DNA of 64,000 bases from Spirochaetales bacterium (lineage in GTDB: Bacteria > Spirochaetota > Spirochaetia > JABEVK01). Positions 54,636-63,540 of the stretch are shown piece by piece. Positions within the stretch are counted from its first letter, which is position 1; each line of letters opens with the position of its first letter. The notes below the pieces were generated by a model that saw nothing but the letters and a program-made list of their open reading frames with translations, was not told the origin of the DNA and searched no databases. The position numbers and the translations under genes were made by a program. Where the stretch lies: the NCBI GenBank assembly GCA_037142615.1, contig JBAXAI010000002.1, forward strand, positions 32,001-96,000. Reading direction: 5' to 3'.

Positions 54636-56203
54636 TCGGGCTTCCCTCCCTGTTTCATCGGGGCACGCGGCGGGGGGATGCGCATCGGATCGGGTACCAC
54701 CGTGGAGCGACTGCCGAACAGGTTGGCCCGCTTGGGAATGCCGGTGGTGGGGGTACAGCCTTCGCCGTCGCTGAAACCGCAGCCGCCCTTGAGGTCGTAG
54801 GCGTTTTCGGCGTATTCGCGGTGGGTGGTGGGGATGACAAACCGGTCCTCGTAGTTGGCCAGCGCCAGGATCCGGTACATCTCGCCGGCCTGGGCCTCGG
54901 TCAGCCCCGCCGCTTCGAGAACCTTGGGCACGTTCTGCTTGTTGACGCTCTTGAGGCGCATCCATGCCCGCATCGAAAGCAGGCGTTCGAGCGCCAGCTT
55001 GATGGGAGCCTCATCGCCGGCCGTGAGCAGGTTGGCCAAGTACTGCAAGGGAATGCGCAGCTGGCTCACGTCGGGAATCGCGCCGTTCATGCCGATGTCG
55101 CCGGCCTGGGCTGCCCCCTGAATGGGCGACAGCGGCGGCACGTACCAAACCATGGGCAAGGTGCGGTACTCGGGGTGCAGCGGGAAGGCGATCTTCCACT
55201 CCATGGCCATTTTGTACACCGGTGAGTTCTGGGCCGAGTCGATCCAGTTCTGGGCGATTCCGTCGGCCAAGGCCTGGGCCTGCACCTTGGGGTCGTGTGG
55301 GTCCAGGAAAATATCGAGCTGGCTCTGATACAGGTCGGTCTCTTTTTCAACGCTGGCGGCTTCCTGAATCTTGTCGGCGTCGTAGAGCAAAACCCCGAGG
55401 TAGCGGATGCGTCCCACGCAGGTTTCACTGCAAACGGTGGGCAGGCCGCTTTCGATGCGCGGGTAGCAGAACAGGCACTTCTCGGCTTTGCCCAGAGCCC
55501 AGTTGTAGTAGATCTTCTTGTACGGGCAGGCCGTGACGCACATGCGCCAGCCACGGCACTTGTCCTGGTCGATGAGCACGATGCCGTCTTCTTCGCGCTT
55601 GTAGATCGAGCCCGAGGGGCAGGCGGCCACGCAGGCGGGGTTGAGGCAGTGTTCGCACAACCGTGGCAGGTACATCATGAAAGTCTGTTCAAACTGGCCG
55701 TAGATGTCTTTCTGAACCTTGTCGAAGTTCTGGTCCTGGCTGCGCTTGGAAAACTCGCCGCCCAGGATTTCTTCCCAGTTGGGGCCGCCGACGATCTTTT
55801 CCATGCGCTCGCCGGTGAGGGCGCTCACGGGGCGTGCGGTCGGTGGATGTTGCATTTCGGGGGCACTTTGCAGGTGAGCGTAGTCAAAGTCAAAGGGCTC
55901 GTAGTAGTCGTCGATTTGCGGCAAGTGCGGGTTGGCAAAGATCTTCGACAACAGCAGAGGTCTGTCCCCCATGCGCGGCACGAGCTTGCCCTTGCGGTTT
56001 TTCATCCAGCCGCCCTTCCACTTTTCCTGGTTTTCCCAGTCCTTGGGGTAGCCGATGCCGGGTTTGGTCTCGACGTTGTTGAACCAGGCGTATTCCATCC
56101 CGGGGCGGTTGGTCCACACCTGCTTGCAGGTCACCGAGCAGGTATGGCAACCGATGCACTTGTCCAGGTTGAGGACCATGCCGATTTGTGCGCGGATCTT
56201 CAT
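54632..56203 (-). CDS. narH: Respiratory nitrate reductase beta subunit (Fe-S)
   Basis: MKIRAQIGMVLNLDKCIGCHTCSVTCK, CEHCLNPAC, CRGWRMC, HPEYRTLPMVWYVPPLSP. Confidence 0.97.
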   Translation of the reverse strand: MKIRAQIGMVLNLDKCIGCHTCSVTCKQVWTNRPGMEYAWFNNVETKPGIGYPKDWENQEKWKGGWMKNRKGKLVPRMGDRPLLLSKIFANPHLPQIDDYYEPFDFDYAHLQSAPEMQHPPTARPVSALTGERMEKIVGGPNWEEILGGEFSKRSQDQNFDKVQKDIYGQFEQTFMMYLPRLCEHCLNPACVAACPSGSIYKREEDGIVLIDQDKCRGWRMCVTACPYKKIYYNWALGKAEKCLFCYPRIESGLPTVCSETCVGRIRYLGVLLYDADKIQEAASVEKETDLYQSQLDIFLDPHDPKVQAQALADGIAQNWIDSAQNSPVYKMAMEWKIAFPLHPEYRTLPMVWYVPPLSPIQGAAQAGDIGMNGAIPDVSQLRIPLQYLANLLTAGDEAPIKLALERLLSMRAWMRLKSVNKQNVPKVLEAAGLTEAQAGEMYRILALANYEDRFVIPTTHREYAENAYDLKGGCGFSDGEGCTPTTGIPKRANLFGSRSTVVPDPMRIPPPRAPMKQGGKPE

Positions 56204-59200
56204 ACTTGGGCTCCTTTTTTGGCCGGGGCAGTGCCCCGGGCTAGGGGCTCGTCCATCCAGTCCACCTTGTCCATTTTGCGCACCAAGACGAACTCGTCGC
56301 GGTTGGTGCCGATGGTTCCGTAGTAGTTGAACCCATAGCTCTGTTGGGCGTAGCCACCGATCATGTGGGTGGGTTTGAGCACAATGCGCGTGACGCTGTT
56401 GTGAATGCCGCCGCGGGTGCCGGTGATGGCGTTTCCGGGCGTGTTCACGATCTTTTCCTGAGCGTGGTACATCATGCACATGCCCTCGTTGACCCGCTGG
56501 CTCACCACCGCCCGGGCACTGATGGCCCCGTTGACGTTGAACAGTTCGATCCAGTCGTTGTCGACGATGCCGGCCTTCCGGGCGTCGGTCTCGCTGATCC
56601 ACACGCAGGGCCCGCCGCGGCTGAGGGTCAGCATCAGCAGGTTGTCGGTGTAGGTGGAGTGGATGCCCCACTTCTGGTGCGGCGTGATGAAGTTCAAGGC
56701 GATCTCTTTGTGGCCGTTGGGTTTAGCCCCCAACATTTGGGCCACCGTCTTGAGGTCAACCGGCGGACGGTAGGCGCACAGGCCCTCGCCAAAATCGAGC
56801 ATCCACGGGTGGTCCTGGTAGAACTGCTGGCGGCCTGTGAGCGTTCGCCACGGAATCAGTTCGTGCACGTTGGTGTAGCCGGCGTTGTAGCTCACGTGCT
56901 CGCTCTCGATGCCGCTCCACGTGGGGCTGCTGATAATCTTTCGCGGTTGGGCCACCAGGTCGCGGAAGCGGAGCTTCTCGTCCTGCTTGGCGCGTGCCAG
57001 GTGCGCGTGTTCGCGGCCGGTGAGCTTGCTCAGGGCTTCCCAAGCCTTGACCGCCACCTCACCGTTGGTTTCGGGCGCCAGGCTCAGAATCACTTCCGAG
57101 GCGTCGATGTCGGTCTCGATGCGCGGGCGGCCCTTGGACACGCCTTCGTCGGTGACCAGGCGGTTGAGCTCACCCAGAAAGTGGACTTCGTCTTCTGTGT
57201 TCCAGCCGATTCCCTTGCCGCCGTTGCCCAGCTTTTCCAGCAGGGGCCCGACCGAGGTGAACTTCTTGTACACGTTGGGGTAGTCACGTTCTACCACCGT
57301 GATGCTCGGAGCGGTCTTGCCGGGGATCAGCTCGACTTCGCCCTTCTTCCAGTCCTTGACCCCCAACGCTTGCGCCAGTTCGGCAGGCGTGTCGTGCATC
57401 AGCGGGTTCATCACGACGTCTTTTTCCACGCCAAGGTGGCCGGGAGCCATGGCGCTGAAGGCCTTGGCGATGCCTTTGTAGATGTCCCAGTCGGAGCGGC
57501 TTTCCCAGTTCGGGTCGACCGCGGCGGTGAGCGGGTGGATGAAGGGGTGCATGTCGCTGGTGTTGAGGTCGTTCTTTTCGTACCAGGTGGCCGTGGGAAG
57601 CACGATGTCGCTGTAAAGGCAGGTGGTGCTCATGCGGAAGTCGAGGGTGACCAGCAGGTCGAGTTTGCCTTGGGGGGCCTCGGCGTGCCATTTGACTTCG
57701 TGTGGGTGTAGCCCTTCCGAGCCCAAATCCTTGCCCTGCACGCCGTTTTTCGTGCCCAGCAGGTGCTTGAGGAAGTACTCGTGGCCCTTGCCCGAGGAAC
57801 CGAGCAGGTTGGAGCGCCACACGAACAGCACGCGGGGGAAGTTGGCCGGGTCGTCCGGGTCTTCGCAGCTGAGTTGCAGCGAACCGTCCTTGAGACCGTT
57901 CACCACGTAGTCCTTGGGCTCAATACCGGCTTTGGCAGCAGCCTTGGCTACTTCGAGCGGGTTGGTCTTGAGCTGAGGTGCGGACGGCAACCAGCCCATG
58001 CGCTCGGACTTCACGTTGTAGTCGATGAAGCTCTGTTCCTTGCCGGAACCAGCGGCCACCAGCGGCGAGCGGATTTCCTCGACGCCCAGCTTTTCGTAAC
58101 GCCACTGGTCGGTGTGGGCGTAGAAGAAGCTGGTGGAGTTCTGCTGGCGGGGAGGGCGGCTCCAGTCGGTGGCAAAGGCCAAGGGCAACCAGCCCGTCTG
58201 CGGACGGAGTTTTTCTTGCCCCACGTAATGCGCCCAACCACCGCCGGACTGCCCCACGCAACCGCAGAGCATCAGCAGGTTCATGATGCCGCGGTAGTTC
58301 ATATCGCTGTGGTACCAGTGGTTCATGGCCGCGCCGATGATCACCATCGACTTGCCGTGGGTGTCGTGGGCATTCTGGGCAAACTCACGGGCCAGTGTGA
58401 GGGCCTGGTGTGCGGGTACCCCGGTGATTTTTTCCTGCCAGGCCGGGGTATAGGGCACATCGTCCTCGTAGTTCTTGGCCACCGAACCACCCAGGCCGCG
58501 GTCGACGCCGTAGTGGGCCGTCATCAGGTCGAACACGGTGGCGACCTTGGTTTCGCCCTCGAGGGTCTTCAGGGTCTTGACGGGAATGTTGCGTACCAAC
58601 ACGTCGCCGCCCTGGTCGTTGGCGGTAAAGGCGTCGGGGGCTGTTCCAGCAAAATAGGGGAAGGCCGCCGGGACCACCTCATCGCGACGGGTGAGCAAGC
58701 TGAGCGCCAAGGTTACCTCGCTGCCAGTCTTGCCGTCTTTTTGTTCCAGGTTCCACTTGCCGGCGTCCTCGCCGGGTTTCTGGTTCCAACGGAAGCCGAT
58801 CGAACCGTTGGGTACGGTCAAAGTGTCCCCGGTTTCGTCCCACGCCACGGTCTTCCAGTCGGGGTTGTTGGCCTGCCCCAGTCCGGCGTCAAAATCACTG
58901 GCGCGCAGGTAGCGGTCGGGCACCCAGGCCTTGCGCCCCCGGTCGAAGCGGAGTTTGACCAGCAGGGGCAAGTCGGTGGTCTTGCGGGCGTAATCGGTGA
59001 AGTAGTCCGAAGGTTCTTCGACGAAGAACTCCTTGAGCACAACGTGGCCCAAGGCCATGGCAAGCGCGGCGTCGGTGCCCTGTTGGGGATGAAGCCACAC
59101 GTCGGCCAGCTTGGCCACTTCGGAATAGTCGGGGGTGATGGCCACCGCCTTGGCGCCCTTGTAGCGCACTTCGGTGAAAAAGTGGGCATCCGGCGTGCGG

Positions 59201-59979
59201 GTTTGAGGCACGTTGCTTCCCCACGCAATGATATAGGTGGAGTTGTACCAGTCGGCGCTCTCGGGCACGTCGGTCTGCTCGCCCCACACCTGCGGGCTCG
59301 CGGGGGGCAGGTCGCAGTACCAGTCGTAAAAGCTCATGCACACGCCGCCAATCAGGCTCAGGTAGCGGCTGCCGGCAGCGTAGCTCACCATGCTCATGGC
59401 GGGAATCGGGCTGAAGCCAATGATGCGGTCGGGGCCGTAGTTCTGGATGGTGCCGATGTTGCTGGCAGCGATGATCTCGTTCACTTCGGCCCAGGTGGAG
59501 CGCACGAAGCCACCCAACCCGCGGCGTTGCTGGTAATCACTGCGGCGTGAGGAATCGGCCTGCAGGGCCTTCCAGGCGGCCACCGGTTCCATCGTGGCGC
59601 GAAGTTCTCGCCAGTGTTTGAGCAGGCGGCCGCGCACCAGCGGGTGCTTGAGCCGGTTGGCGCTGTACATGTACCAGCTGTAGCTCGCTCCCCGGGCGCA
59701 ACCGCGGGGTTCGTGGTTGGGCAAATCCGGGCGGGTACGGGGGTAGTCGGTCTGTTGGGTTTCCCAGGTGACGATGCCGCCCTTGACGTAGATCTTCCAG
59801 CTGCAACTGCCGGTGCAGTTCACCCCGTGGGTGGAGCGGACGATTTTGTCGTGCTGCCAGCGACTGCGGTAGCGTTCTTCCCACGTGCGGTCTTCCTGCA
59901 CGACGTTGCCGTGCTTGCCCGAGAAGGCCTCTTTCGGTTTGAGGAAAAAGCTCAGGCGATCGAGAAACGGTTGCGACAT
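56200..59979 (-). CDS. narG: Respiratory nitrate reductase alpha subunit (cytoplasm-facing, no Tat signal)
   Basis: RSTHGVNCTGSCSW, HEPRGCARG, DWYCDLPPASPQ, TPHQKWGIHST. Start ATG 59979. Confidence 0.97.
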   Translation of the reverse strand: MSQPFLDRLSFFLKPKEAFSGKHGNVVQEDRTWEERYRSRWQHDKIVRSTHGVNCTGSCSWKIYVKGGIVTWETQQTDYPRTRPDLPNHEPRGCARGASYSWYMYSANRLKHPLVRGRLLKHWRELRATMEPVAAWKALQADSSRRSDYQQRRGLGGFVRSTWAEVNEIIAASNIGTIQNYGPDRIIGFSPIPAMSMVSYAAGSRYLSLIGGVCMSFYDWYCDLPPASPQVWGEQTDVPESADWYNSTYIIAWGSNVPQTRTPDAHFFTEVRYKGAKAVAITPDYSEVAKLADVWLHPQQGTDAALAMALGHVVLKEFFVEEPSDYFTDYARKTTDLPLLVKLRFDRGRKAWVPDRYLRASDFDAGLGQANNPDWKTVAWDETGDTLTVPNGSIGFRWNQKPGEDAGKWNLEQKDGKTGSEVTLALSLLTRRDEVVPAAFPYFAGTAPDAFTANDQGGDVLVRNIPVKTLKTLEGETKVATVFDLMTAHYGVDRGLGGSVAKNYEDDVPYTPAWQEKITGVPAHQALTLAREFAQNAHDTHGKSMVIIGAAMNHWYHSDMNYRGIMNLLMLCGCVGQSGGGWAHYVGQEKLRPQTGWLPLAFATDWSRPPRQQNSTSFFYAHTDQWRYEKLGVEEIRSPLVAAGSGKEQSFIDYNVKSERMGWLPSAPQLKTNPLEVAKAAAKAGIEPKDYVVNGLKDGSLQLSCEDPDDPANFPRVLFVWRSNLLGSSGKGHEYFLKHLLGTKNGVQGKDLGSEGLHPHEVKWHAEAPQGKLDLLVTLDFRMSTTCLYSDIVLPTATWYEKNDLNTSDMHPFIHPLTAAVDPNWESRSDWDIYKGIAKAFSAMAPGHLGVEKDVVMNPLMHDTPAELAQALGVKDWKKGEVELIPGKTAPSITVVERDYPNVYKKFTSVGPLLEKLGNGGKGIGWNTEDEVHFLGELNRLVTDEGVSKGRPRIETDIDASEVILSLAPETNGEVAVKAWEALSKLTGREHAHLARAKQDEKLRFRDLVAQPRKIISSPTWSGIESEHVSYNAGYTNVHELIPWRTLTGRQQFYQDHPWMLDFGEGLCAYRPPVDLKTVAQMLGAKPNGHKEIALNFITPHQKWGIHSTYTDNLLMLTLSRGGPCVWISETDARKAGIVDNDWIELFNVNGAISARAVVSQRVNEGMCMMYHAQEKIVNTPGNAITGTRGGIHNSVTRIVLKPTHMIGGYAQQSYGFNYYGTIGTNRDEFVLVRKMDKVDWMDEPLARGTAPAKKGAQV

Positions 59980-60033
59980 CGGCAAGCCCCCTTAATGCAC
60001 ATGAACTGAGTTTGGGGGGTGCGAGGCCGGACT

Positions 60034-60112: not shown

Positions 60113-61858
60113 CTAACCCAGTGGCATCTCGATCGGGTTGGCCTTTTTGTTGGCAAGCCAGTCCCCGTTCTCGGCGAGGGCTTCCTTGCCCAAGGCAAAC
60201 AAAAGCCCCTCGACCGTGGCCCCGTTCGTGCCAGCCGCCAGGATCTTCTTTTTTCCAAGACCAAACAGGCGGGCCATCCGGCGGTACTGCCGTTCTTCCT
60301 CTTCCTTCCCGGTCACCTCGGCAAAGGTAGCCAGCGCCGTACCGATACCCAGCAGCGTGTCGAAGGCGAACATCAGCCAGGGGAAGGCGAGCTTTTCCTT
60401 GATCTCAGACAGGTTCTGCCAATCCAATTCCGGGTTCTCGAGCACCTGGAAGATTTGCAAACCCACGACCCCCACAAGCGCCGCCAGCGAGAGGACAAAG
60501 AGGGTGCCGGTTCGCAAGCGCTGTCGGCTCTGCTGCTTTTCGCGGGTCTCGCTGGTGCGTCCGAAGTACTTCTCCTGATCGGCGACCCAGGCTTTCGTGG
60601 CGATTTCGAGACCTTCCTTCGTCACCCCCGAAAGGGCTTCGTTTTCGGCCTCGAGGTCGACGGCACGGAGCGCCATCAGGATCCAGGCCATGCTGCCCCG
60701 GTATTTCTGCAGGTAGTGGTCTCCCACGTGCTCCCCAACCCCGGCGATGCGCCAGTACAACTGAACCCGCAGGCCTTCGGCCAGGGCTCGGCAGTCCACG
60801 TAGTCGTTATCCCAACCCCTCCGGTTGGCGATCAACGTGACCAAAAGCCCAAAGGCGAGAAGGCCGAGGGCCAAAGCGAGAGTTCCCGTAAAAGGGGCCA
60901 GTTCGACAAACAACGACAGGAGAGAGAACGCCGAGGCCGCCATGACGAAGAGCAGGATCAAGGTTTTTACAACCCGCTTTTGCAGCCGCTGGGCCAGCAC
61001 GTCGGCCACCGCAGCCCAATGCAGCACCGACTTCGTTCCGGCGTTGAGGGTTTCTGCGGTCTTCTCGTCCAGCAGGTAGCTCTTGGTGAGCTTGAGGGCC
61101 GCCTGGTCCAGACTTGCAGCCGAAAGCCGGTTGAAGTGATCCAGCGACGACAAGCCCTGCATAAAGACGTCGCCCAGCCTTTCTTCCTTGTCTTGCGACC
61201 ACGACTGGGGGAGCAATACCGAGTAATCTTGGCCTTCGTCAGGGCAGTAGCAGGCAATTTCGCGCTGACCGGGTTGGAGCGTTTCAGGGTCATGCGACAC
61301 CCTCGCCGCGAACAGATGAAAAACCGTCCCGAAGTCGGGGGTTTCCAGTGGGCTGTGCTTTCCTCCGAACTCTGCGGGAACACCGTTGAGCTTGAACTCG
61401 ACGCACTGGGCGGTTCCCCCCGGCTCGTGGTGGTTCTTCCCGTTCCATAACGCAACCAGCAGGTGGGTGTGCTCGGCGAGGTACCGGGCCAGTTGAAGGT
61501 AACGGTGGTCAGGCTGCGCTGAAACCGGCAACTCAACCACCAGTTTGGCTCGCGACAGCAGGCGTTGGAAGGTCTCGAGGCTGAGCCCTGAAAAGTCTTT
61601 TTCATAGTCGGCCACCGGCACCGGCAAGACCGCGACCAGTTCGAAGCCCAGATCCAGGGCTACCTCGGCCACCAGACGGTCGGCCCCTTCGGCCAGGCCC
61701 GAGAGCAAGCGGAAAGGGCTCGATGGGAACTTGGAACGGAGTTCACTCAGCGTCCGGCGGACCTGCTGCGTGAGCTGCACGAGGTCTTGGGGTCTCAAAT
61801 CCCGGTGGCCGGTGACTCCCAAGGTAATGGGGAGGCCTGAATGGGTGGGTGGCGTCAT
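60113..61858 (-). CDS. SLOG-domain protein with two SLATT/DUF4231-like 2TM modules (predicted nucleotide-gated membrane effector)
   Basis: SLOG motifs LGVTGHR, SGLAEGAD, LVALWNG, GGTAQCV; C-terminal TM pairs with W...RALAEGLR, WVADQEKYF, YRRM and ENGDW motifs. Confidence 0.75.
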   Translation of the reverse strand: MTPPTHSGLPITLGVTGHRDLRPQDLVQLTQQVRRTLSELRSKFPSSPFRLLSGLAEGADRLVAEVALDLGFELVAVLPVPVADYEKDFSGLSLETFQRLLSRAKLVVELPVSAQPDHRYLQLARYLAEHTHLLVALWNGKNHHEPGGTAQCVEFKLNGVPAEFGGKHSPLETPDFGTVFHLFAARVSHDPETLQPGQREIACYCPDEGQDYSVLLPQSWSQDKEERLGDVFMQGLSSLDHFNRLSAASLDQAALKLTKSYLLDEKTAETLNAGTKSVLHWAAVADVLAQRLQKRVVKTLILLFVMAASAFSLLSLFVELAPFTGTLALALGLLAFGLLVTLIANRRGWDNDYVDCRALAEGLRVQLYWRIAGVGEHVGDHYLQKYRGSMAWILMALRAVDLEAENEALSGVTKEGLEIATKAWVADQEKYFGRTSETREKQQSRQRLRTGTLFVLSLAALVGVVGLQIFQVLENPELDWQNLSEIKEKLAFPWLMFAFDTLLGIGTALATFAEVTGKEEEERQYRRMARLFGLGKKKILAAGTNGATVEGLLFALGKEALAENGDWLANKKANPIEMPLG

Positions 61859-61880: not shown

Positions 61881-63419
61881 CTACTTCATTTTCGAGACGA
61901 TTTTGCGTACCCCTTCCTCGAAGTACTCGTGGCGTAGATGCACGCCGTCAAAGCGAAGGGCCTGGTGGATTTCGGGCGGCAAGGAATCGCTCGCGGGTTG
62001 CACAAAGTCGGGCTTGAACACGGGAATGATGTTCATCTTGGTGCGGATGGCCTCGCGGATTTCGTTGGCAACCCAGTCGTCGGCTTGCTGGCACCGGTCC
62101 AGCGCACCGGCAGAGAGCAGAAGAACGAAGTTTTTCGAACTTCGGATGCTCCCCATGATCTGGTCGTCAAACGCTCCGGCCTGCATGGACTTCACGTCGA
62201 GGAACACGTTTTTGCCTTCGCCGGCCAGCCTCGCGTACAGCGCCCAGACCGCGTCGGCGCCCCCGTTTCTGCGGTAGCTGATAAAGGCATCCAGCGGACC
62301 TGTCTTGGCAACCATTTTCAGCGGCGAGCCGTAGAGCTCGGCCATGCCTTGCAGAACCTCGGCGCGCCCGAGCACGGTGCCTGCCCGGGGCGAGTCCACA
62401 ATCGTGAAGTCGTGCCCGCGCCCGTCGTACCAAGGGTCCTCGTTGTCGCAATACCCGTCGTAGCGGGGCGAGCCGCCGCGCTGCTGCCCCAGTTCGGCTC
62501 GTTTCTGGGTTTCGCGCCGCTCGAGCTCGTACCCCAACTGCGGCAGGTGGTAGGCACCCGACGGATCGACCGAAATCACAAAGCGGTAGGGTTGCCCGTC
62601 TTTCTCGTAGGGGTACACCAAAACAGCCTGATCGGGCAGGGTTTCCCTCACCCAATACTTGGCGAGCACGCTGCGCGGCTGCCGCGAAAAGGCGAACGCC
62701 TTGACCTTCTCTGAAAGAGCATCTCGTTTGGGCAGAAAGAGTTCCAGCGTGGTCGAGTCGAGTTTGTCGCCTTCAAAGAGGGCTTGATCGGCCATGAGGC
62801 GGTCGGCGACCTCCTGGAAGTCTGCCGTAGGCTCGCAGGGCTCCAGAAAGTCGGCAGCCGTCAAGTTGCGGCCCCGAGTCTCGATGATCTGCGCGACCAG
62901 GTTTCGGCCCTGAATCAGGCACTGCTCGTGGCCGCGAAGTGTATTCATCAGCATGAGGTACAAAAGGAAGGGGCGAACGGGTTTGCCTTCGACACGGGCC
63001 AGGCCCTGGTCGATGCGGTTGGTGGCCTCAACCAGCGCCCGCGTAACACCGTCGTCGGGCAGGCGGCCGTTTTGCAGCAGATAATCGACCAGGTAGTACC
63101 CACACACCCCATCCCAGTCGGGCGCCTGGTGCGTCGTGAACTGGAACTTCAGCTCGCTGCCCTCGAGCTTGCCTCCCGAGTAGTAGGTTCGGTTGAGCGG
63201 CGCCAGCAGGTGGTCGAGCACGAACTGCGGATTGCGGGCAATGGCCTCGGTCGAGCTCTCGGGCCCATCCAAAAGGTGATGGTGGTCCAAAATGCCGGGC
63301 TCAAGCCGGTTGCCCACATCGACAAACACGCGCCCGGGCTCGGGCGACACCGTCGAACCGTGGCCTAGGAACTCGTACCTCCATTGACGGGAGACGCCCA
63401 AATCGATCGTACCTAACAT
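61881..63419 (-). CDS. Permuted DHH-like phosphoesterase domain fused to a C-terminal SARM1-like TIR domain
   Basis: ATG 63419 after AAGGAG (512 aa). N-terminal VDVGN, LDHHH, THQAPDWDG; C-terminal DAFISYRR...VFLD...FVLLLS...DWVANEI with a Glu at the TIR catalytic position. Confidence 0.8.
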   Translation of the reverse strand: MLGTIDLGVSRQWRYEFLGHGSTVSPEPGRVFVDVGNRLEPGILDHHHLLDGPESSTEAIARNPQFVLDHLLAPLNRTYYSGGKLEGSELKFQFTTHQAPDWDGVCGYYLVDYLLQNGRLPDDGVTRALVEATNRIDQGLARVEGKPVRPFLLYLMLMNTLRGHEQCLIQGRNLVAQIIETRGRNLTAADFLEPCEPTADFQEVADRLMADQALFEGDKLDSTTLELFLPKRDALSEKVKAFAFSRQPRSVLAKYWVRETLPDQAVLVYPYEKDGQPYRFVISVDPSGAYHLPQLGYELERRETQKRAELGQQRGGSPRYDGYCDNEDPWYDGRGHDFTIVDSPRAGTVLGRAEVLQGMAELYGSPLKMVAKTGPLDAFISYRRNGGADAVWALYARLAGEGKNVFLDVKSMQAGAFDDQIMGSIRSSKNFVLLLSAGALDRCQQADDWVANEIREAIRTKMNIIPVFKPDFVQPASDSLPPEIHQALRFDGVHLRHEYFEEGVRKIVSKMK

Positions 63420-63540
63420 TGGTTGCTCCTTGCGTGGTCCAAACGTTCCATTAGTATTGTTCCGAGGGTGCCCTGGGTGCAAGGTGGGGCGGGAACAAAG
63501 AAGTCGTTCGACAGAGGACTCGTCATGGAGTTTCTCTGCC

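Follow-up and report, generated by a model that had tools for sequence, protein, structure and literature searches.

The first 370 residues of a TIR protein encoded in a Spirochaetales genome very probably form a DHH-DHHA1 module whose core motifs have been rearranged, running II-III-I-IV rather than I-II-III-IV. The gene lies in the stretch analysed here, a window of 64,000 nucleotides (assembly GCA_037142615.1, contig JBAXAI010000002.1, positions 32,001 to 96,000), next to a gene for a SLOG-SLATT membrane protein. The module is probably a complete and active divalent-metal phosphoesterase. The analysis shows the modelled fold, the motifs with their conservation and order, the fusion partners, and the operon layout. 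From these we infer its catalytic activity and its substrate, as well as its role, which we tentatively read by analogy as that of a signal-degrading off-switch or timer for signalling from the TIR domain to the SLOG-SLATT protein.

A rearranged DHH core joined to a DHHA1-like lobe

The gene and its parts are as follows, with residue numbers referring to the encoded protein.

61881..63419, minus strand: DHH-TIR gene, an open reading frame (ORF) translated to 512 amino acids, with rearranged DHH subdomain, helical linker, DHHA1-like subdomain, and TIR domain
62940..63419, minus strand: DHH-type catalytic subdomain, about residues 1-160, order II-III-I-IV (AlphaFold2 model, Foldseek and VIA matches, hhalign to NrnA profile)
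63276..63329, minus strand: motif II (VDVGN, D34) and motif III (D45-H46-H47), residues 31-48, aligned to NrnA motifs II and III
63108..63137, minus strand: motif I (H97-x3-D101-x-D103), residues 95-104, aligned to NrnA motif I
63003..63017, minus strand: motif IV-like RIDQG (D137), residues 135-139, from a low-probability hhalign alignment onto the NrnA DTG motif
62316..62792, minus strand: DHHA1-like subdomain, residues 210-368 (VIA structural matches)
62376..62450, minus strand: family signature N-x-DPWYDGRGH-x2-TIVDSP-x2-GT, residues 324-348, the family's most conserved block
61965..62285, minus strand: TIR domain, residues 379-485 (Pfam TIR_2 E 4.3e-10, 40.6 bits against a cut-off of 28)

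The motifs that a sequence-only reading had picked out, VDVGN (D34), LDHHH (residues 44-48), THQAPDWDG (96-104), and RIDQG (135-139), are all present in the translation. The conserved-looking segment singled out there, CDNEDPWYDGRGHDFTIVDSPRAGT, corresponds to residues 324-348 and falls in the DHHA1-like subdomain (Z about 7), and the proposed fusion to a TIR domain is borne out by the Pfam TIR_2 match, which lies over its cut-off. For residues 1-370, no Pfam, NCBIfam, or PADLOC model matched at E<=1, and the protein has no match to PF01368 or PF02272 at the same threshold.

The AlphaFold2 model of residues 1-370 (57 homologues; mean pLDDT 95.9, pTM 0.91) gave five Foldseek matches in the PDB at E<=0.001, all of them DHH/DHHA1 enzymes; Foldseek's matches include yeast PPX1 (E 5.7e-5), Rv2837c, GdpP, and mycobacterial NrnA (probability 0.99). 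When VIA-align was applied to Foldseek's list, PggH came first (Z 10.8, 233 residues aligned, root-mean-square deviation (rmsd) 4.7 A), and ranks 1-45 were all of the DHH fold (DHH/DHHA1), among them PAP phosphatase, RecJ, TM1595, Cdc45, NrnA, DhhP, family II pyrophosphatase, and the AlaRS C-Ala domain. Many of the VIA alignments cover model residues 208-368 alone and place them on DHHA1 domains, including those of NrnA, PPX1, family II pyrophosphatase, and AlaRS C-Ala (Z 5.3-7.9, rmsd about 3 A, about 100-119 residues). Strand ends carry D34, D45-H47, and H97 in the model, and helix ends carry D101/D103 and D137, an arrangement shared with canonical DHH enzymes. The position of G333-R334-G335-H336 within the second subdomain suggests that this stretch occupies the place of the GGGH of DHHA1 enzymes. 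Sequence profiles added nothing for this lobe: residues 211-365 gave no signal against the NrnA profile in hhalign (P 0.4%), and a search of PDB chains with the sequence profile found no relative (best E 0.08, on an unrelated coiled-coil part). Mean-field co-variation over 210 sequences, computed for strand pairing and site geometry, returned gap artefacts as its top pairs.

The label DHH/MYG1-like, which the N-terminus had been given earlier, can be kept in its first half. The fold matches are to DHH/DHHA1 proteins only, and Pfam scans add sub-threshold DHH matches. These scans covered 42 database proteins of varied length and 65 of the 66 host ORFs from 79 genome loci (an ORF of 3,249 amino acids was omitted), with DHH matches in 8 and 6 proteins, respectively, and in 27 of 57 family members in a third set (best E 2.5e-5, in the set of 57). 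They put positions 2-40 of the Pfam model, which contain motif I, on the H-x2-PD-x-D stretch of the homologues and are thus an independent support for the placement of motif I. No member reached the Pfam DHH gathering score (best 26.4 bits against 28.1), and DHHA1 was absent among the families listed (25 of 41 matched) for the 57 members. For the MYG1-specific half of the label no link was found: the DHH-TIR protein has no match to PF03690 (MYG1_exonuc) at E<=1, and its structural TM to a MYG1 cluster in the Atlas is only 0.31. PF03690 was also absent among the families listed (25 of 41 matched) for the 57 members and had no match in 61 genomes of the phylum or in 14 control genomes. MYG1 (UPF0160) is a member of the DHH superfamily, as is the module, and it has a close-set DVGG...DHHQ pair that resembles the VDVGN...DHH(Q) of the DHH-TIR protein.

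Motif order

Because the genome's own NrnA-like protein follows the canonical order, with motif I (HADPDGD), II (LLDTSD), III (IIDHH), and IV (YDTGSF) followed by GGGGH, the order in the DHH-TIR protein can be said to differ. An NrnA profile was built from 30 genomes of the phylum, and the family profile was aligned to it with hhalign. Over the whole domain, residues 85-117 fell on NrnA motif I (P 83.8%, E 7.9e-6), and an alternative, non-colinear alignment placed residues 30-47 on motifs II and III. When segments were aligned separately, residues 1-84 matched query positions 11-64 to NrnA 54-143 (P 51.8%, E 1.5e-4; reversed control P 0.1%), a stretch in which a Ser/Thr-rich helix comes after motifs II and III. 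Residues 85-210 matched query positions 87-155 to NrnA 11-87 (P 94.3%, E 1e-7; reversed control P 1.0%). The non-canonical order claimed in the sequence-only reading is upheld by this segment-wise alignment, but the circular permutation offered there as its cause is not. Motif IV and the DHHA1 lobe still stand behind motif I, and by these profile alignments, therefore, two adjacent segments have exchanged places, namely the strand-helix unit with motif I and the strand units with motifs II-III, and the domain as a whole has not been circularly permuted.

Conservation of the motifs

Conservation was assessed on domain matches from database proteins and genome loci; 304 were collected, 198 of them spanned 250 or more aligned residues, and setting aside identical sequences left 189. 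Across these 189 domains the motifs are kept, with the main ligands in 178-186 domains and H46 as the exception (122/189). Since the main ligands persist in this many distinct homologous domains, the motifs are not a product of chance, and the original proposal withstands the refuting condition it had named for itself, a lack of conservation among homologues. For motifs II and III the counts are 178 (D34), 183 (G36), 184 (D45), 122 (H46; Q in 31 and T in 15), and 180 (H47), for motif I 180 (H97), 182 (P100), 179 (D101), and 186 (D103), and for motif IV 181 (D137) and 176 (G139). The signature block shows D328 in 179 domains, W330 in 182, Y331 in 180, G333 in 182, R334 in 173, H336 in 154, and D342 in 166. 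At position 48, Q is the commonest residue (63/189).

Of the 18 TIR-fused members, 17-18 have the conserved residue at each catalytic position. Other architecture classes retain the catalytic positions in most or all members, bar H46, D332/R334, and H336. H46 is replaced by T in all 5 giant forms and is H in 40 of the 86 forms fused to a partner termed X (see below), D332/R334 are found in 5/12 of the cyclase class, and H336 is changed to F or A in the giant class.

The DHH-TIR operon and its surroundings

The likely start of the DHH-TIR gene is the ATG at 63419, with AAGGAG 6 nucleotides upstream, and a public protein collection holds an identical copy of the 512-amino-acid protein (P0002). 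Its TIR domain also matches the PADLOC ThsB model (1.1e-7) and an NCBIfam Thoeris TIR model, both weakly. E453, kept in 16/16 TIR-fused homologues, is the probable catalytic residue of this domain, and we take it to be the catalytic Glu of TIR NADases. The next gene on the same strand is the following.

60113..61858, minus strand: SLOG-SLATT gene, 581 amino acids, 22 nucleotides past the TIR stop, with SLOG-like N-terminus and SLATT-like two-transmembrane effector

Every domain match of the SLOG-SLATT protein lies under its curated cut-off, yet the matches are mutually consistent (Pfam: DUF4231 24.2 bits with a cut-off of 24.7, SLATT_3 E 0.002, YAcAr E 0.0035, DprA E 0.0047; NCBIfam: SLATT_3 2.4e-6; PADLOC: ShosA 4e-5). 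Its N-terminus resembles SLOG (YAcAr, DprA, ShosA) and its middle the SLATT/DUF4231 two-helix membrane domain. As in Thoeris-like systems, a TIR protein with a conserved Glu stands beside an effector with a predicted nucleotide-sensor domain.

The DHH-TIR gene is single-copy in its own genome and was found in 0/30 relatives searched, a set that includes 4 congeners and 7 further genomes from the family, some of the genomes being only 76-90% complete. Accessory defence genes typically show such patchy occurrence. The window contains neither a CorA-like gene nor a CRISPR locus. A 1,261-amino-acid ORF at 56200-59985 (minus strand), 127 nucleotides downstream of the SLOG-SLATT gene, was read as a NarG-type nitrate reductase, and an ORF on the other flank, at 63423 and running off the window end, as decarboxylase-like, both from translation alone.

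A large family with varied partners

A word-indexed search returned 45 relatives of the module. When 1.84 billion cluster representatives (50% identity) were searched exhaustively with HMMER, the family numbered 646 at E<=0.001, 432 at E<=1e-10, and 93 at E<=1e-30. The family is spread over many phyla and includes one contig labelled as an archaeal metagenome-assembled genome (MAG). That contig is labelled Woesearchaeota archaeon MAG, and the ORF that contains the module there is at least 3,249 amino acids long (L043:3460-13206). Searches of phages, plasmids, and viral contigs found no relative, and look-alike clusters labelled viral in the Atlas are unconfirmed as relatives.

The survey of fusion partners that had been suggested on the basis of the sequence was carried out by BLAST clustering of 214 flanking extensions and neighbour proteins. 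Partners comprised X, kinase, TIR, cyclase, TCAD9, and caspase, with members distributed as follows.

X, about 340-450 amino acids, a C-terminal extension ending in hydrophobic helices: 142 members
Ser/Thr kinase: 21 members
TIR of the window's type: 20 members
TIR of a second type: 4 members, three in proteins that also have a kinase domain
Class III cyclase, often with TPR: 13 members
TCAD9 / APH-like: 7 members
C-terminus of about 1,000 amino acids: 5 members
Caspase (L075): 1 member

The caspase case is a 748-amino-acid ORF (L075:906-3149) that combines a partial module match, at about residues 280-357, with a C-terminal caspase (Peptidase_C14). The X cluster also contains the gene directly upstream of stand-alone DHH modules in 9 loci. 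Because it spans both extensions and upstream genes, DHH with X is the main pairing of the family, whether fused or split. X matches no Pfam family. As modelled (pLDDT 86.2), it consists of an alpha/beta head and a long stalk helix, about 59 residues in length, and ends in a helical hairpin. The six best Foldseek matches of this model are CorA or CmaX (E 0.03-0.19, probability 0.5-0.77), and VIA gives many whole-length rows of CorA, ZntB, and MRS2 (Z 4.5-5.4). An unbiased VIA search with the X model returned generic helical hairpins alone and no CorA among the top 50. Taken together, the model weakly suggests that X is a CorA-like membrane domain.

The joining of a constant module to variable outputs (X, TIR, Pkinase, Guanylate_cyc, TCAD9, caspase) is the usual pattern of sensors and their outputs, and this opens an alternative to the off-switch. 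The module might be a catalytic sensor in which DHH-DHHA1 binds an infection-derived nucleotide or short oligonucleotide, turns it over slowly, and through lobe closure switches on the fused output, TIR in this protein and pore, kinase, cyclase, or caspase elsewhere, with hydrolysis serving as a built-in timer. CARF or SAVED sensors, which can cleave their own ligands, provide a parallel. The ligand-facing block, near-invariant in most classes although degraded in the cyclase and giant classes, would suggest one common ligand. A pure sensor, however, would not need to retain the full set of catalytic residues, and classic sensors already adjoin many of the loci. We regard such a sensor as possible but doubtful. 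It is unlikely that the module constitutes a new class of catalytic nucleotide receptor, as an unnamed and widespread input domain of STAND-associated bacterial immunity.

The classic sensors in question are STAND NTPases with WD40 or TPR repeats, frequent neighbours that were found at L080, L028, L148, L005, L051, L052, and L071. Evidence on neighbourhoods rests on 159 fetched loci, for a family of 646 clusters, and no neighbour family is conserved; the largest cluster (29/142 loci) consists of repeat, kinase, and STAND proteins linked through their repeats. Stand-alone modules placed right after STAND or BrxC-like NTPases (L051, L052, L071) occupy the usual place of an effector, and L055 and L060 have homologous upstream genes by BLAST clustering. 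Perhaps, then, the module is itself an effector or co-effector that neighbouring sensors deploy, degrading nucleic acid ends, nanoRNA, nucleotides, or ADP-ribose, the last of which would block the rebuilding of NAD+. The fused partners TIR, caspase, and pore-like X are typical effectors, and the DHH relatives include the nucleases RecJ and NrnA. In contrast, the best structural match, PggH, is a dinucleotide phosphodiesterase and not RecJ, the protein has no extra nuclease-type domains, and its partner in the window, SLOG-SLATT, is a receptor-effector protein that points to signalling over direct killing. An effector role is accordingly improbable in our estimation.

Three further loci show how the pair of X and a stand-alone DHH gene can be embedded. 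At L029:907-9202, an X gene, a stand-alone rearranged DHH gene, an unknown 627-amino-acid gene, and an RT-Cas1 fusion gene follow one another in the same direction. This row is a possible link to type III CRISPR; there is no repeat array within the 9.2 kb examined, and it is the sole RT-Cas1 case among the examined loci. In two Parabeggiatoa genomes (L018:2212-3906 and L037:1998-3806), a PP2C phosphatase-Ser/Thr kinase fusion precedes X and the stand-alone DHH, with a gap of about 400-500 nucleotides to X; the fusion also resembles the defence kinases MADS6 and PglW. In both of these loci, which are unrelated to the window, a NarK transporter gene precedes the PP2C-kinase gene, a nitrate parallel with the ORF read as NarG in the window that is probably a coincidence.

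Origin of the TIR fusion

In a midpoint-rooted FastTree tree of 189 domains (LG+gamma), the 17 modules with a TIR of the window's type group together as a single clade (support 0.986). This clade is nested in one of 30 (support 1.0) together with 10 X-fused and 3 solo forms, and the clade of 30 sits in a 103-member group that is mostly X-fused (75). The nesting among X-fused forms indicates that the TIR domain replaced X once, in the same C-terminal slot. That TIR took over the slot of X also speaks for the catalytic sensor, as does the composition of loci with a comparable protein.

DHH-TIR proteins occur at 3 of the 159 fetched loci. At L080:251-6536, the protein is full length, has 49% identity to that of the window, and is encoded 35 nucleotides behind a 1,571-amino-acid STAND (NACHT/APAF1_C) WD40 gene. 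At L001 the gene faces a TPR gene, and L081 carries a fragment. A SLOG-SLATT homologue stands beside the DHH-TIR gene at none of the three (0/3), and at L080 and L001 the protein would, if it is a sensor, be a self-contained sensor and NADase.

The sole SLOG-SLATT homologue in the fetched loci lies in a metagenomic operon (L101:803-4293) made up of a TIR protein (363 amino acids), the homologue (604 amino acids; full length, 31% identity, E 1.9e-71), and a second TIR gene. The first TIR is 44% identical to the TIR domain of the window, and neither TIR gene has a DHH module. The TIR and SLOG-SLATT proteins are therefore the core of the signalling system and the DHH module an add-on. The L101 operon also bears on the idea of signal maturation, in which the DHH module would convert the primary TIR product, for instance by pyrophosphate or phosphodiester cleavage, into the molecule that SLOG reads. 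Such a step would be in keeping with a generator and a phosphoesterase on one chain, about 10 residues apart, and with the capacity of DHH enzymes to cleave pyrophosphate and phosphodiester bonds (PPX1, family II pyrophosphatase, PggH, and GdpP are among the matches). However, the related system at L101 does without the module, and the module is far more often joined to domains that are not generators, which leaves signal maturation highly improbable.

Comparison with known systems

The closest functional parallel is NrN, a DHH phosphodiesterase that is adjacent or fused to the CRISPR-associated membrane effector CorA (Chi et al. 2023, PMC10600005). As described there, NrN specifically degrades S-adenosyl methionine-AMP (SAM-AMP) and lowers the toxicity of CorA, its DHH motif is required for immunity, and its nearest structures are PggH and GdpP (PMC10600005). 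The DHH motif of the Bacteroides fragilis NrN is given at residues 85-87 (PMC10600005), a position that suggests the canonical order. Compared by this published description, NrN and the present module share a DHH/DHHA1 fold in a context of immune signalling, PggH and GdpP as some of the best structural relatives, and a partner that is adjacent or fused and, in the present family, may be CorA-like (X, 142/214, with its weak CorA match), and one member of the family stands beside RT-Cas1 (L029). They differ in that the module of the window is fused to TIR and placed next to SLOG-SLATT, outside any type III CRISPR locus, and in that its DHH motif is found at residues 45-47, ahead of motif I. In the literature examined, NrN is the sole studied DHH enzyme of defence signalling; as presented by Chi et al. 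it is an eraser, with CorA binding the ligand (PMC10600005), which argues against a sensor role for the module.

With NrnA, PggH, and GdpP the DHH-TIR protein shares the two-lobe fold of DHH and DHHA1, all four DHH motifs, and a Gly/His motif in the second lobe. Unlike these enzymes, it has the order II-III-I-IV, carries DPWYDGRGH in place of GGGH, and shows in its model fewer strands in the first lobe together with a long helical linker.

A recent preprint on Thoeris describes systems of TIR and SLATT proteins that signal with cyclic ADP-ribose (cADPR), and its main text makes no mention of a phosphoesterase, a phosphodiesterase, or a sensor (bioRxiv 10.64898/2025.12.03.692087). The operon of the window resembles Thoeris types VII and III with SLATT or SLOG effectors, as far as that text describes them, in that its two genes pair a TIR protein with a membrane effector of the SLATT type, and the layout of multiple TIR genes with SLOG is seen at L101. 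It differs from the described types in the phosphoesterase domain on the TIR protein and in the additional SLOG-like N-terminus of the effector. Kaur et al. (2020, PMC7159879) mention inactive kinase and cyclase domains that carry a "highly derived HAD domain". The latter may or may not be the DHH module; the folds found here are DHH and not HAD.

A possible off-switch for TIR signalling

By analogy with NrN, we tentatively favour the view that the module limits a signal made on its own polypeptide chain. In this two-gene, putatively anti-phage operon, the TIR domain would produce a nucleotide signal derived from nicotinamide adenine dinucleotide (NAD), the downstream SLOG-SLATT membrane protein would read it with its SLOG-like domain, and the fused DHH module would hydrolyse it. 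Hydrolysis would hold the resting signal under its threshold and bring about a reset, much as NrN does for SAM-AMP and CorA in type III CRISPR. In the course of its evolution, the module very probably had its motif I strand-helix unit moved behind the motif II-III unit, and in this lineage the TIR domain took the place of the membrane part once. The analogy with NrN gains weight because the usual partner of the family is weakly CorA-like, and the off-switch also draws on the add-on nature of the module seen from L101.

Several observations weigh against this off-switch. The DHHA1 signature is near-invariant in most partner classes, being degraded in the cyclase class (D332/R334 5/12) and the giant class (H336 lost), and one common ligand therefore fits it better than each generator's own product. 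At L080 and L001, the DHH-TIR loci with usable flanks, there is no SLATT or SLOG gene nearby, so that it is hard to see which receptor an eraser would protect there. A conserved neighbour that could generate a signal is lacking beside most DHH-X fusions (largest neighbour cluster 29/142 loci). Finally, the likeness of X to CorA is weak (Z <=5.4, and helical hairpins alone in the unbiased search).

Implications for the family

What is new here is the rearranged DHH core and its fusion to TIR; the DHH superfamily and an NrN-like logic were known before. Full-text searches of the literature found no description of a DHH-TIR fusion or of a DHH core with swapped motifs, and no host-encoded enzyme that degrades TIR-made signals was found in the literature searched. 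The family is large, at 646 clusters, has no Pfam, NCBIfam, or PADLOC model, and is coupled to hallmark immune domains. The module provides a clear case from nature of a DHH core with swapped segments, and the family would carry the theme of NrN and CorA well beyond CRISPR. If the sensor role were true, a new input domain would be defined; if the off-switch role is true, the DHH-TIR protein would be a candidate for the first host enzyme that erases TIR-made signals.

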